A stretch of 64,000 nt of DNA from Escherichia coli (GCF_024298765.1 NZ_CP101210.1); one strand, 5' to 3'; positions 19,243 through 24,188 are shown, numbered from the stretch's first letter. A program made the numbers and translations. Notes: generated by a model not told the origin, from the sequence alone.

Positions 19243-19956
19243 TCAGAGCGGATTCTTTTTGTTGCGAATCAGGTTGAGGCTTTCAACCGCAATAGAGAAG
19301 AACATCGCGAAGTAGATGTAACCTTTCGGTACGTGGATGTCGAAACTTTCCAGAATCAGGGTAAAGCCCACCAGAATCAGGAAAGAGAGCGCCAGCATTT
19401 TTACCGAAGGATGGCGCTCGACAAAATCACCAATCGAGCGCGCGGCGAACATCATCACGCCTACGGCAATCACCACGGCAGCCATCATAATAAACAGGTG
19501 ATCTGACAGACCCACAGCAGTAATCACCGAGTCGAGGCTGAAGATAATATCCAGCAGCATAATCTGCACGATAGCGCCGAGGAATGATGAAACGCGTGTT
19601 TTCAGCCCTTCTTCTTCACCTTCGATGGATTCGTGGATTTCCTTGCTGGCTTTCCAGATAAGGAACAAGCCACCCAGAAGCAGGATCAAATCACGGGCGG
19701 AAATTTCCTGACTGAATATTGTAAAAAGCGGATTTGTCAGGCGCGTAACCCAGGCGATTGATGCCAGCAGCGCCAGACGCATAACCATGGCTCCCGCCAA
19801 CCCCAGACGCCGCGCATGAGCACGTTGTGCTGTGGGGAGCTTTGCCACCACCAGAGAAAGAAAAATAATATTGTCGATCCCAAGAACGATCTCCAGCAGC
19901 GTCAGCGTACCGAGCGCAAGCCAGGCGTTAGGATCGGTTATCCATGCAAATAACAT
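19243..19956 (-). CDS. ygdQ: TerC-family integral membrane protein
   Basis: 237-aa hydrophobic ORF; synteny between ygdR and mutH. Confidence 0.8.
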
Positions 19957-20024
19957 CTAAAAAGCCCTGCCAAAAAAATGAAGCGGTAATTATATGCCCG
20001 GAAAGCGGCAGGTCAAAGCGATGG

Positions 20025-20714
20025 CTACTGGATCAGAAAATGACGGGCCAGTAGCGCACTGGTGAAATTCTTCTTCAAATAAAAGCCGCGCGGCAGCGTC
20101 AGAATCCGTTCGCCCCGGACACCAATGGCTTCGGTAAGCGCTTTCGCATTCGCTGCTTTCGGTCGTATCTGCAAATATTCCCCGTGACGAGCGGTGATCC
20201 GCTCAACCTGACCGAGAACAATCATATCCATTAATTCTTCCCAGTCTTCGCGCAGTTGCCGGTCTTCCTCTTCATTCGGGCTCCACAGTAACGGTGATCC
20301 TACGCGACGCTGCGCCAGCGGGATGCTGCGCTCGCCTTCAACCGGTATCCACAGTACGCGTTTGAGCTTGTGGCGTACGTGGCTGGTTTCCCAGGTCACC
20401 CCGCTATTACCCGTTAACGGGGCAACACAAACGAATGTTGTTTCCAGCGGACGACCAAGACTATCCACAGGGATAGTTTTAAGTTCCACGCCCAGGGCAG
20501 CAAAATCTTGCTCAGGTTTACTTCCTGCGCTGGCACCTAGCCAGATCTCCAGTAACACGCCAATCCAGCCCTTATCGCGTTTTAAATTCTCCGGCGTAAC
20601 CAGCCCGGCAAGTGCCGCCAGTTCTCCCAATGTATAACCAGAAAGTTGTTGTGCTTGCGCTAACAATTGTTCTTCAGTTTCGGGAGGAGAGAGCAGTGGG
20701 CGAGGTTGGGACAT
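20025..20714 (-). CDS. mutH: Methyl-directed mismatch repair endonuclease
   Basis: 229-aa ORF recognised as MutH. Confidence 0.9.
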
Positions 20715-21398
20715 GTCATGATACCTTGGTTAAAAAACAAACAGCAATTAAGTGCCGAATATTCGCAGTGTAACTTTTTCCACATGCGTTGTTCAATTCT
20801 CTGATTTATATTGCTTTTTAGGTTGCCGGTAATCGAGTTGCGCAACACTGCAACGGGTTTTCCAAATCTGGTCACTGAAAATAAACAGGATCTTACACCA
20901 TGTTATCCACAGAAAGCTGGGATAACTGTGAAAAACCTTCACTACTGTTTCCATTTACAGCCTTGACGTGCGACGAAACTCCAGTTTTTAGTGGTTCAGT
21001 GCTTAACTTAGTGGCACATTCTGTGGATAAATACGGCATTGGTTGATCTTTCGCCAACCCGTAAATGAGAGGTGTGACCTGGGTCACGAACTACTCTTTT
21101 TTATTACTCAAATTACATGTAATGCATTGACTGATAATGAATATTTTAAAATGTCTATATCGGGCTTATTCAGAATGCTCCGGGTTTTCCCGTAGTAATT
21201 CCGTAGTTCTTCACAACTCTATCCACAGAAAAGGTGAATAAAAACGGCTATCCACCCCTTCCTCTGTTTATAACTCTGCACATAACTGTGAGTTATTCAA
21301 TTGTTATTAGTGTGTAATGCCCTGCAGAGAGTGGTTTACCGTCTTCCTGGAGTATGAAACAATCATTCGTATATAAAGCTTTATTTTGAGGTAGTCCG

Positions 21399-21929
21399 GT
21401 GATTGATGACGATGGCTACCGCCCAAACGTAGGTATCGTGATTTGTAATCGCCAGGGGCAGGTAATGTGGGCCCGGCGATTTGGTCAGCACTCCTGGCAA
21501 TTTCCGCAAGGCGGAATCAACCCCGGAGAATCCGCAGAGCAGGCGATGTACCGTGAATTGTTTGAAGAAGTAGGATTAAGCCGCAAAGACGTTCGAATCC
21601 TTGCTTCAACGCGTAACTGGTTGCGCTACAAATTACCGAAACGTTTGGTGCGTTGGGACACGAAGCCGGTTTGTATCGGCCAAAAACAAAAATGGTTTCT
21701 CTTGCAGCTGGTGAGCGGCGATGCAGAAATCAATATGCAAACCAGCAGTACACCAGAGTTTGACGGCTGGCGATGGGTAAGTTACTGGTATCCAGTCAGA
21801 CAGGTGGTGTCATTTAAACGTGATGTCTACCGTAGGGTAATGAAAGAGTTCGCGAGTGTGGTGATGTCACTGCAGGAAAATACGCCAAAACCACAAAACG
21901 CATCTGCTTATCGACGTAAAAGAGGTTAA
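21399..21929 (+). CDS. rppH: RNA pyrophosphohydrolase (Nudix)
   Basis: 176-aa ORF starting [14 protein letters not shown] with Nudix box ([22 protein letters not shown]). Confidence 0.9.
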
Positions 21930-21941
21930 GTCACGCCAATT

Positions 21942-24188
21942 ATGCTCACTCGCCTGCGCGAAATAGTCGAAAAGGTAGCCAGCGCACCACGCCTGAATGA
22001 GGCGTTAAATATTCTGGTTACCGACATCTGTCTTGCGATGGATACCGAGGTCTGTTCGGTCTACCTGGCCGATCATGATCGACGTTGTTACTACCTGATG
22101 GCGACCCGGGGGCTGAAAAAACCACGTGGTCGCACTGTAACGCTCGCGTTTGATGAAGGGATCGTCGGCCTGGTTGGCAGGCTGGCGGAACCGATAAACC
22201 TTGCAGATGCGCAAAAGCACCCCAGCTTCAAATACATCCCCTCCGTAAAAGAAGAACGTTTCCGCGCGTTTTTAGGCGTACCAATTATTCAACGTCGCCA
22301 GTTGCTTGGTGTACTGGTGGTACAGCAACGAGAGTTGCGCCAGTATGACGAAAGTGAAGAATCCTTCCTGGTGACGCTTGCCACCCAGATGGCAGCGATT
22401 CTTTCTCAGTCGCAGTTGACTGCCTTGTTTGGGCAATATCGCCAGACGCGAATCCGTGCATTACCGGCAGCGCCTGGTGTAGCGATTGCCGAAGGCTGGC
22501 AGGATGCCACGTTACCTTTAATGGAACAGGTGTATCAGGCATCAACGTTGGATCCGGCTCTGGAACGCGAACGACTGACCGGGGCGCTGGAAGAAGCGGC
22601 AAACGAGTTTCGCCGCTACAGCAAACGCTTTGCCGCCGGTGCACAAAAAGAAACGGCGGCTATTTTCGATCTTTACTCACACCTGCTTTCGGATACCCGG
22701 CTGCGGCGCGAATTGTTTGCCGAGGTTGATAAAGGCTCGGTGGCAGAGTGGGCGGTAAAAACGGTCATTGAAAAATTTGCCGAACAGTTTGCCGCGCTAA
22801 GCGATAACTATCTCAAAGAGCGGGCTGGCGATTTACGTGCGCTGGGCCAGCGATTGCTGTTTCATCTTGATGACGCTAATCAAGGGCCGAACGCCTGGCC
22901 GGAACGTTTCATTCTGGTGGCAGATGAACTGTCAGCGACAACGCTTGCTGAGCTGCCCCAGGATCGCTTAGTCGGTGTTGTCGTGCGCGATGGCGCTGCC
23001 AACTCCCATGCTGCGATCATGGTACGTGCGCTGGGGATACCTACCGTGATGGGCGCGGATATTCAGCCTTCGGTACTGCATCGTCGGACGCTGATCGTCG
23101 ATGGTTATCGCGGTGAATTGCTGGTCGATCCGGAGCCGGTACTGCTGCAAGAATATCAGCGGCTAATTAGTGAAGAGATCGAGCTTAGCCGTCTGGCGGA
23201 AGATGACGTCAATTTACCCGCCCAGTTAAAAAGCGGCGAACGCATTAAAGTCATGCTCAATGCCGGTTTAAGCCCGGAACATGAAGAAAAACTGGGCAGC
23301 CGTATTGATGGCATAGGACTTTATCGCACTGAAATCCCATTCATGCTGCAAAGTGGTTTTCCGTCGGAAGAAGAACAGGTGGCGCAGTATCAGGGGATGC
23401 TGCAAATGTTTAATGATAAACCCGTCACCTTGCGTACGCTGGATGTCGGAGCAGATAAGCAGCTGCCTTACATGCCGATCAGCGAAGAGAATCCATGCCT
23501 GGGTTGGCGTGGGATTCGCATTACGCTCGATCAGCCGGAGATCTTCTTGATCCAGGTGCGGGCGATGCTGCGTGCTAATGCCGCTACGGGCAACCTGAAT
23601 ATTCTGTTGCCGATGGTCACCAGCCTCGATGAAGTTGACGAAGCACGCCGCCTGATTGAACGTGCCGGACGTGAAGTCGAGGAGATGATCGGTTACGAAA
23701 TTCCCAAACCACGTATCGGCATCATGCTGGAAGTGCCGTCAATGGTATTTATGCTGCCGCATCTGGCAAAGCGGGTCGATTTCATCTCTGTTGGCACCAA
23801 CGATCTGACGCAATACATCCTTGCCGTTGATCGCAACAATACCCGGGTTGCGAACATTTATGACAGTCTTCATCCTGCAATGTTACGAGCTCTGGCGATG
23901 ATCGCCCGGGAAGCGGAAATACATGGAATCGATCTCCGTTTGTGCGGTGAAATGGCGGGCGATCCGATGTGCGTGGCAATCCTCATTGGGCTTGGGTATC
24001 GCCATTTGTCTATGAACGGACGTTCTGTAGCGCGCGTAAAATACCTGCTGCGGCGCATTGATTTTGCCGAAGCAGAAAATCTTGCGCAGCGTAGTCTGGA
24101 AGCGCAACTGGCGACCGAAGTTCGCCATCAGGTTGCTGCCTTTATGGAGCGTCGCGGCATGGGCGGGCTGATTCGCGGGGGGTTATAG
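21942..24188 (+). CDS. ptsP: PEP-protein phosphotransferase of the nitrogen PTS (GAF + enzyme I domains)
   Basis: 748-aa ORF; N-terminal GAF-like region, enzyme I phospho-histidine region (GAANSHAAIMVRALGIP) and PEP-utilising C-terminus; 12 bp after rppH. Confidence 0.9.
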   Translation: MLTRLREIVEKVASAPRLNEALNILVTDICLAMDTEVCSVYLADHDRRCYYLMATRGLKKPRGRTVTLAFDEGIVGLVGRLAEPINLADAQKHPSFKYIPSVKEERFRAFLGVPIIQRRQLLGVLVVQQRELRQYDESEESFLVTLATQMAAILSQSQLTALFGQYRQTRIRALPAAPGVAIAEGWQDATLPLMEQVYQASTLDPALERERLTGALEEAANEFRRYSKRFAAGAQKETAAIFDLYSHLLSDTRLRRELFAEVDKGSVAEWAVKTVIEKFAEQFAALSDNYLKERAGDLRALGQRLLFHLDDANQGPNAWPERFILVADELSATTLAELPQDRLVGVVVRDGAANSHAAIMVRALGIPTVMGADIQPSVLHRRTLIVDGYRGELLVDPEPVLLQEYQRLISEEIELSRLAEDDVNLPAQLKSGERIKVMLNAGLSPEHEEKLGSRIDGIGLYRTEIPFMLQSGFPSEEEQVAQYQGMLQMFNDKPVTLRTLDVGADKQLPYMPISEENPCLGWRGIRITLDQPEIFLIQVRAMLRANAATGNLNILLPMVTSLDEVDEARRLIERAGREVEEMIGYEIPKPRIGIMLEVPSMVFMLPHLAKRVDFISVGTNDLTQYILAVDRNNTRVANIYDSLHPAMLRALAMIAREAEIHGIDLRLCGEMAGDPMCVAILIGLGYRHLSMNGRSVARVKYLLRRIDFAEAENLAQRSLEAQLATEVRHQVAAFMERRGMGGLIRGGL

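Follow-up and report, generated by a model that had tools for sequence, protein, structure and literature searches.

What occupies the long gap between the housekeeping genes mutH and rppH in Escherichia coli, and is it more than spacing? In the window analyzed here (64,000 nt of NZ_CP101210.1, read on one strand, to which all coordinates refer), the gap runs from 20715 to 21398, i.e., exactly 684 bp between the mutH ATG and the rppH GTG, so that the extent given in an earlier note made from the sequence (about 685 bp, from mutH to rppH) proved to be exact. The flanking genes and all mapped features are listed in Table 1. The interval was matched at an identity of at least 95% in 5,424 of 5,426 complete E. 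coli genomes and was found at 100% identity in one E. coli strain. A plasmid record was 1 of the 5,430 matching places of this chromosomal interval. The right half of the gap had been singled out as AT rich and indeed has a G+C content of 38%, but the contrast was overstated, as the other half is at 40% and the window as a whole is at 51%. The gap had also been said to lack a convincing open reading frame (ORF), with a 64-codon frame as the sole candidate. That frame is present (20893 to 21087, minus strand), and frame and codon-position tests upheld the absence of a convincing gene; however, the frame is not the only candidate, as the gap also holds a 48-codon plus-strand ORF annotated as ygdT and ORFs of 50 to 53 codons. 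What distinguishes the interval is its content of DnaA boxes. Four of the window's six perfect boxes (TTWTNCACA) fall within the 684 bp (Poisson P, ~9e-9), as do 10 of its 112 boxes with at most one mismatch (P, ~3e-7). This density is unmatched in any other 684-bp stretch of the window; the interval is a nonrandom feature and not a chance gap. A second DnaA-box-rich stretch, at 45.4 to 46.1 kb, contains one-mismatch boxes only, lies in AT-rich coding sequence, and was rejected as a composition effect.

The mutH-rppH interval is almost certainly the DARS2 locus (DnaA-reactivating sequence 2), flanked by short promoter/leader regions of mutH and rppH. DARS2 is already known and well characterized, and its presence explains the long gap: what chiefly fills the interval acts as DNA, in the control of chromosome replication rather than of gene expression. 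DARS2 was reportedly first defined in E. coli K-12 by Fujimitsu in 2009. Published descriptions place DARS2 upstream of mutH or between mutH and rppH (ygdP/nudH) (PMC11317965, PMC5835720, PMC4585315). To locate its parts, ~30 published DARS2 primers and oligonucleotides were mapped onto the window, and most matched it exactly (PMC4245941, Table S1; PMC4585315); published drawings show DARS2 in the orientation opposite to that of the window, and the MG1655 coordinate (NC_000913.3) equals 2990376 minus the window coordinate. The mapping delimited the 455-bp element, the minimal element, the core, the 21-mer, boxes IV to VI, IBS1-2, and Fis sites FBS1, FBS2-3, FBS4-5, and FBS6. Both the deltaCore primers (MutH-14/15) and the deltaDARS2 arms of PMC4585315 delete exactly the core, the boxes I and II of which stand head-to-head; labels I, II, and III were assigned by us from box orientation. 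IBS1-2, bracketed by the subIBS1-2 primers Ksh-16/19, is situated between the core and the Fis sites, and each of its two sites has one mismatch to TAAnnnnTTGATW in a consensus scan. Matches to the IHF and Fis consensuses coincide with the published positions. Box V lies inside the FBS2-5 cluster, the oligonucleotides for which span 21006 to 21063. Thus, the interval contains the three-box core that defines the DARS family (boxes I and II head-to-head, with box III beside box II in the same orientation), along with the features specific to DARS2: the location between mutH and rppH, correspondence to the 455-bp and minimal fragments, IBS1-2, and the FBS2-3 21-mer beside box V. The 455-bp element leaves ~230 bp of the interval uncovered (20715 to 20809 and 21265 to 21398), part of which is strongly conserved.

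Table 1 Features of the mutH-rppH interval and its boundaries (window coordinates)
Feature	Coordinates	Strand	Sequence	Details
mutH	20025-20714	-		Left boundary; 229-aa ORF; ATG at 20714; RefSeq DNA mismatch repair endonuclease MutH
rppH	21399-21929	+		Right boundary; 176-aa ORF; GTG at 21399; RefSeq RNA pyrophosphohydrolase
Full-length DARS2	20810-21264			455 bp; experimentally defined in K-12; published primers
FBS6 (Fis site)	20840-20854			Dispensable; bracketed by primers Ksh-9/10
Box VI cluster	20891-20925		TCTTACACC-atg-TTATCCACA-gaaag-CTGGGATAA	Third box inverted (TTATCCCAG)
ygdT (b4610)	20900-21046	+		48-codon ORF; RefSeq-annotated in every E. coli record inspected
DnaA box VI	20903-20911		TTATCCACA	Perfect; replaced by primers Ksh-34/35
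Conserved block	20943-20969		TACTGtTTCcATTTACAGCCTTGACGT	Mean identity 0.90, 46 Enterobacterales
DnaA box V	21022-21030	-	TTATCCACA	Perfect; replaced by primers Ksh-32/33
21-mer with Fis sites FBS2-3	21031-21051			Gap between primers MutH-24 and MutH-25; GATC at 21045-21048
Minimal DARS2 ("deltaRight")	21032-21264			Primers MutH-11 and MutH-4
CRP palindrome	21070-21090		aggTGTGAcctgggTCACGaa	Within minimal DARS2, between FBS2-3 and IBS1-2; overlaps FBS1
FBS1	21074-21105 (oligo FIS-1L); 21082-21096 (Fis consensus)			Overlaps CRP palindrome
IBS1-2 (IHF sites)	21120-21148			Two sites, 3 bp apart
IBS1-2, first site	21120-21132	+	TAATGCATTGACT	
IBS1-2, second site	21136-21148	-	TAAAATATTCATT	
DnaA box IV	21166-21174	+	TTATTCAGA	1 mismatch; bracketed by primers Ksh-30/31
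DARS2 core	21207-21241		TTCTTCACA-act-CTATCCACA-gaaaa-GGTGAATAA	1 mismatch per box
Core box III	21207-21215	+	TTCTTCACA	Box scan
Core box II	21219-21227	+	CTATCCACA	Box scan
Core box I	21233-21241	-	TTATTCACC	Box scan
Conserved blocks	21265-21297		CTGTTTATAACT and CTGTGAGTTAT	Identity 0.93 and 0.89; rppH side, just outside DARS2
Probable rppH promoter and leader	21331-21398	+		-35 TTTACC 21335-21340; 17-bp spacer; extended -10 TGaAACAAT 21355-21363; GAGG Shine-Dalgarno

Compared with the K-12 element (Kasho 2014, PMC4245941; Miyoshi 2021, PMC8682772; Kasho 2025, PMC11724364), the present element has the same position and the same 455-bp length, with every mapped site in the same order and at the same spacing, and it differs by strain-level polymorphisms only. 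There are four substitutions in the 455 bp (20939, 21091, 21102, and 21109). The first falls in a spacer and in codon 14 of ygdT, and the other three fall in or beside FBS1, which is dispensable. Boxes I to VI, IBS1-2, and FBS2-5 are free of substitutions, so that IBS1-2, the FBS2-3 21-mer, and box V are each identical to their K-12 counterparts. We do not expect these polymorphisms to cause a functional difference, and near-identity to the K-12 allele implies that the present allele is likely to be active.

The mechanism of DARS2 and its occupancy in vivo have been described for K-12 (PMC4245941, PMC8682772, PMC11724364, PMC11317965). Two activities, an ADP release from ADP-DnaA that depends on IHF and Fis and an in vivo stimulation of initiation, were demonstrated with the K-12 allele only (PMC4245941, PMC8682772, PMC11724364), and sequence identity suggests that the same mechanism would operate in the present strain. 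ADP-DnaA would bind the three core boxes, with the opposed boxes I and II setting two DnaA molecules head-to-head. IHF at IBS1-2, assisted by negative supercoiling, would bend the DNA sharply, and the bend would carry Fis, bound ~170 bp away at FBS2-3, onto the core-bound DnaA. ADP would then be released, and free DnaA would leave and rebind ATP, thereby raising the level of ATP-DnaA before oriC next initiates. Once abundant, ATP-DnaA would oligomerize from box V across FBS2-5 and evict Fis, switching DARS2 off in a negative feedback. Published genetics assign these roles to the parts listed in Table 1: the minimal "deltaRight" element suffices on a plasmid, the FBS2-3 21-mer is essential (PMC4245941), boxes IV to VI are dispensable in the plasmid assay (Kasho 2014, PMC4245941), and box V acts in the ATP-DnaA/Fis negative feedback (PMC8682772). 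Deletion of DARS2 leads to a higher initiation mass and asynchrony (PMC4585315, PMC5835720). DnaA chromatin immunoprecipitation sequencing (ChIP-seq) in K-12 revealed three strong DARS2 peaks, at 2969124, 2969306, and 2969501 (PMC11317965), which convert to roughly 21250, 21070, and 20875 in the window.

The ATP/ADP state in which DnaA is found is set by three noncoding chromosomal loci, DARS2, datA, and DARS1; DARS2 therefore helps decide the timing of chromosome replication in E. coli. DARS1, in the bioD-uvrB intergenic region, shares the order box III, 3 bp, box II, 5 bp, and inverted box I, its core in MG1655 reading TAATACACA-tgg-TTATCCACA-ggaat-AGTGGATAA. According to the literature, DARS1 spans ~100 bp, has no need for IHF or Fis, and is not cell cycle regulated (PMC5010248, PMC11724364); in contrast, the present element additionally has regulatory regions (IBS and FBS) as well as further DnaA boxes. 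Like DARS2, datA is a noncoding chromosomal cluster of DnaA boxes with an IHF site and modulates the nucleotide state of DnaA (PMC8682772, PMC11724364). However, datA inactivates DnaA by ATP hydrolysis, with ATP-DnaA oligomers arranged head-to-tail, whereas DARS2 reactivates it by ADP release via head-to-head boxes. The interval also resembles oriC in its clustered high- and low-affinity DnaA boxes and its IHF, Fis, and GATC sites, and oriC includes a double box whose end reads TTATCCACAg (PMC11317965, Table 1). Unlike oriC, the interval has no AT-rich 13-mer unwinding element and is not a replication origin, and it carries the head-to-head pair typical of DARS.

The comparison across relatives that the earlier note had proposed as a check came out in favor of a functional element. 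With RppH as an unbiased anchor, we retrieved 80 loci spanning Enterobacterales, Vibrionales, and Alteromonadales; the divergent neighbor of rppH was mutH in most of them. The gap measured 672 to 712 bp in 46 Enterobacterales loci and ~600 bp in most of the Vibrionaceae sampled, and the core lay 188 to 206 bp upstream of rppH in both Enterobacterales and Vibrionaceae. The 46 Enterobacterales loci and the window were aligned with MAFFT, and mean identity was calculated for each element. It was 0.60 for the whole gap, 0.91 for the core, 1.00 for box V, 0.87 for the box VI cluster, and 0.71 for the FBS2-3 21-mer, in which the CGATCTTTC motif is highly conserved. The dispensable FBS6 (0.35) and box IV (0.46) were poorly conserved. 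Conservation in the gap tracks the protein-binding sites. In Brenneria, Dickeya, and Pectobacterium, a fixed-spacing scan of four loci found a box VI-type triplet and no canonical core at about -190; in the alignment, box II of these loci is altered to ATGTCCACA.

Two conserved regions had no counterpart among the elements named above. The block at 20943 to 20969 holds a CTGT-N8-ACAG palindrome (20945 to 20960) and a -35-like hexamer, TTGACG, of which TTGAC is invariant. A LexA/SOS box was considered for the palindrome and set aside, since roughly half of the genomes have G as the fourth base. The other region comprises the two blocks immediately beyond the rppH-proximal end of DARS2, of which CTGTTTATAACT is a one-mismatch DnaA box on the minus strand.

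RefSeq annotates no DARS2 feature here and places ygdT inside DARS2 instead. The functional content of the gap might be the 48-aa protein YgdT, with conservation reflecting selection on that protein. RefSeq carries the annotation in essentially all E. coli genomes, a weak AGGA stands 9 nt upstream of the ATG, and a protein homology search showed that similar ORFs are called in other genera, with the N-terminal 26 residues conserved. However, only 18 of 47 Enterobacterales genomes retain the ATG; in-frame stops occur at codons 9 to 11 in Enterobacter, Pseudescherichia, Superficieibacter, and others; and the ORF length and C terminus vary freely. Conservation by codon position was 0.70/0.67/0.74, with the third position conserved best, compared to 0.95/0.99/0.59 for rppH and 0.66/0.73/0.38 for mutH. 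Moreover, the "conserved residues" coincide with DNA sites: LSTE and WDN correspond to the box VI cluster, SVDK to box V, and RSF to the GATC of FBS2-3. After these frame and codon-position tests, the ORFs called in other genera no longer counted in favor of a gene. Neither the 48-aa ORF nor the 64-aa antisense ORF had a family match in Pfam or NCBIfam. Searches of the accessible literature yielded no functional study of ygdT, and most biological mentions were misprints for YdgT (the Hha paralogue) or gene lists. We consider it highly improbable that selection on YgdT accounts for the locus. Most likely, ygdT is not a conserved protein gene, and we conclude that constraint acting on the DNA accounts for its conservation; it is probably a misannotation inside DARS2, with lineage-specific expression in E. 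coli a possibility. DARS2, by comparison, explains the length, the AT richness, and the conservation of what looks like a "housekeeping" intergenic gap. The locus is annotated with the doubtful ygdT only and with no DARS2 feature, and sequence-only scans will therefore keep flagging it.

The gap might instead encode a regulatory small RNA or form a long, structured 5' untranslated region (UTR) of rppH-ptsP, which is what the earlier note had raised in suggesting a regulatory RNA or an extended promoter/UTR. The gap is long, AT rich, and conserved in blocks; its right end does carry a short leader and promoter of rppH; and RNA polymerase binding in the gap has been observed by genomic SELEX, which located RpoD promoters in both directions (PMC3946193). 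The call of an rppH promoter at 21331 to 21398 is a probable one that we base on conservation. TTTACC-17-TGaAACAAT lies 36 to 64 bp upstream of the rppH GTG, in a region with a conservation of 0.84. A simple consensus promoter scan called no promoter in the gap, being too strict for this TTTACC-17-TGaAACAAT arrangement. The stretch from 21331 to 21365 is nearly invariant and reads GTGGTTTACCG-N10-AGTrTGAAACAATCA. A different promoter in the rppH direction, TTGACG-18-TTTAGT, has been proposed inside ygdT (PMC3946193); in the Enterobacterales alignment, its -35 is invariant and its -10 is not conserved.

The remaining evidence speaks against an RNA. An Rfam scan, which the earlier note had named as a check, returned nothing near any gathering score across 19900 to 22100: with E values of up to 10 allowed, there was no family match, and the hits had E values of at least 0.5 and belonged to eukaryotic or viral families. 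RNAalifold, applied to four conserved blocks on both strands in 47 genomes, gave at most -5 kcal/mol (shuffled alignments gave ~0 kcal/mol), and the helices consisted of the invariant inverted DnaA boxes only, with no covariation. The terminator scan found one terminator-like hairpin, which is at the level expected by chance. The conserved blocks take the form of oriented 9-mers and of palindromes with variable spacers, a signature of protein-binding DNA. In addition, transcriptome sequencing (RNA-seq) signal is very low at DARS2, and induced transcription through DARS2 abolishes its function (PMC5010248). We consider it exceedingly improbable that the gap encodes a regulatory small RNA or forms a long, structured 5' UTR. 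What survives of the earlier interpretation is that the interval is essentially noncoding and regulatory and, as the SELEX data indicate, holds the promoter regions of mutH and rppH; the regulatory RNA or extended UTR found no support in Rfam, in RNAalifold, or in the published transcription data (PMC5010248).

Alternatively, the DnaA, CRP, Fis, and IHF sites might chiefly serve a complex divergent promoter controlling mutH and rppH-ptsP, with DnaA reactivation being secondary. One paper locates DARS2 "in the mutH promoter" (PMC5835720), DnaA doubles as a transcription regulator (PMC11317965), a high-affinity CRP site is present, and the conserved DnaA-like boxes at 21265 to 21297 stand just upstream of the putative rppH promoter. 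However, the core, IBS1-2, and FBS2-3 are backed by direct biochemical and genetic evidence for DnaA nucleotide exchange (PMC4245941, PMC8682772, PMC11724364), and either start codon is 190 to 370 bp away from the core and the CRP site, a long distance for classical activation. We regard a primarily promoter-directed role as unlikely, while noting that a promoter role and a DnaA-reactivating role are not mutually exclusive.

Taking the locus as DARS2, its conservation goes well past the experimentally required minimal element, and the box VI triplet, the block at 20943 to 20969, and the CRP site are modest leads on DARS2 regulation for specialists in replication control. Box VI is the middle member of a triplet with a 9-3-9-5-9 head-to-head layout, which is the layout of the DARS1 and DARS2 cores; the triplet is located in the "dispensable right half" of DARS2. 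Only two such clusters, the triplet and the core, occur in the 64-kb window, and none occurred in 20 shuffles. The distance from the start of the triplet to the start of the core is 316 bp (range, 314 to 316 bp) in most Enterobacterales sampled, and 316 bp corresponds to ~30 helical turns. The strongest of the three K-12 DnaA ChIP-seq peaks at DARS2 maps to the box VI cluster (PMC11317965). We found no description of the triplet as a core-like module in the searchable DARS2 literature.

The CRP palindrome contains TGTGAcctgggTCACG (21073 to 21088), which matches 9 of the 10 half-site bases of TGTGA-N6-TCACA; against the background of the window, matches of at least 9/10 occurred in 2 of 365 tiles of 175 bp. 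A match of at least 8/10, with a variable spacer between the half-sites, was present at the same offset from box V in 20 of 21 Enterobacteriaceae loci. In K-12, Footprint-seq and an in vitro Kd of 2.7 nM identified this as a novel high-affinity site, assigned to "rppH / mutH" (preprint PMC12871828, Table 1). Our search of the accessible literature found no paper linking CRP to DARS2, which does not prove that the idea is unpublished. We tentatively propose, as a possibility that we would not favor at even odds, that DARS2 is a larger, length-locked bipartite device in which the triplet (through looping or DnaA hand-over) and cyclic AMP (cAMP)-CRP (through bending or through competition with Fis at FBS1) may tune reactivation to nutrient status.

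The gap has two GATC (Dam) sites, one at 20889 to 20892 beside box VI (GGATCTTACACC) and one at 21045 to 21048 in FBS2-3 (CGATCTTTC), and both are in the most conserved motifs; their placement may point to a link with methylation or SeqA. Finally, in the locus fetched from E. coli NZ_CP084026.1, a laboratory conjugant, an IS4-like ISVsa5 element (~3420 to 4900) is inserted within IBS1-2, at the equivalent of about window position 21135. The insertion splits the DARS2 core from the Fis sites and constitutes a natural disruption of DARS2.
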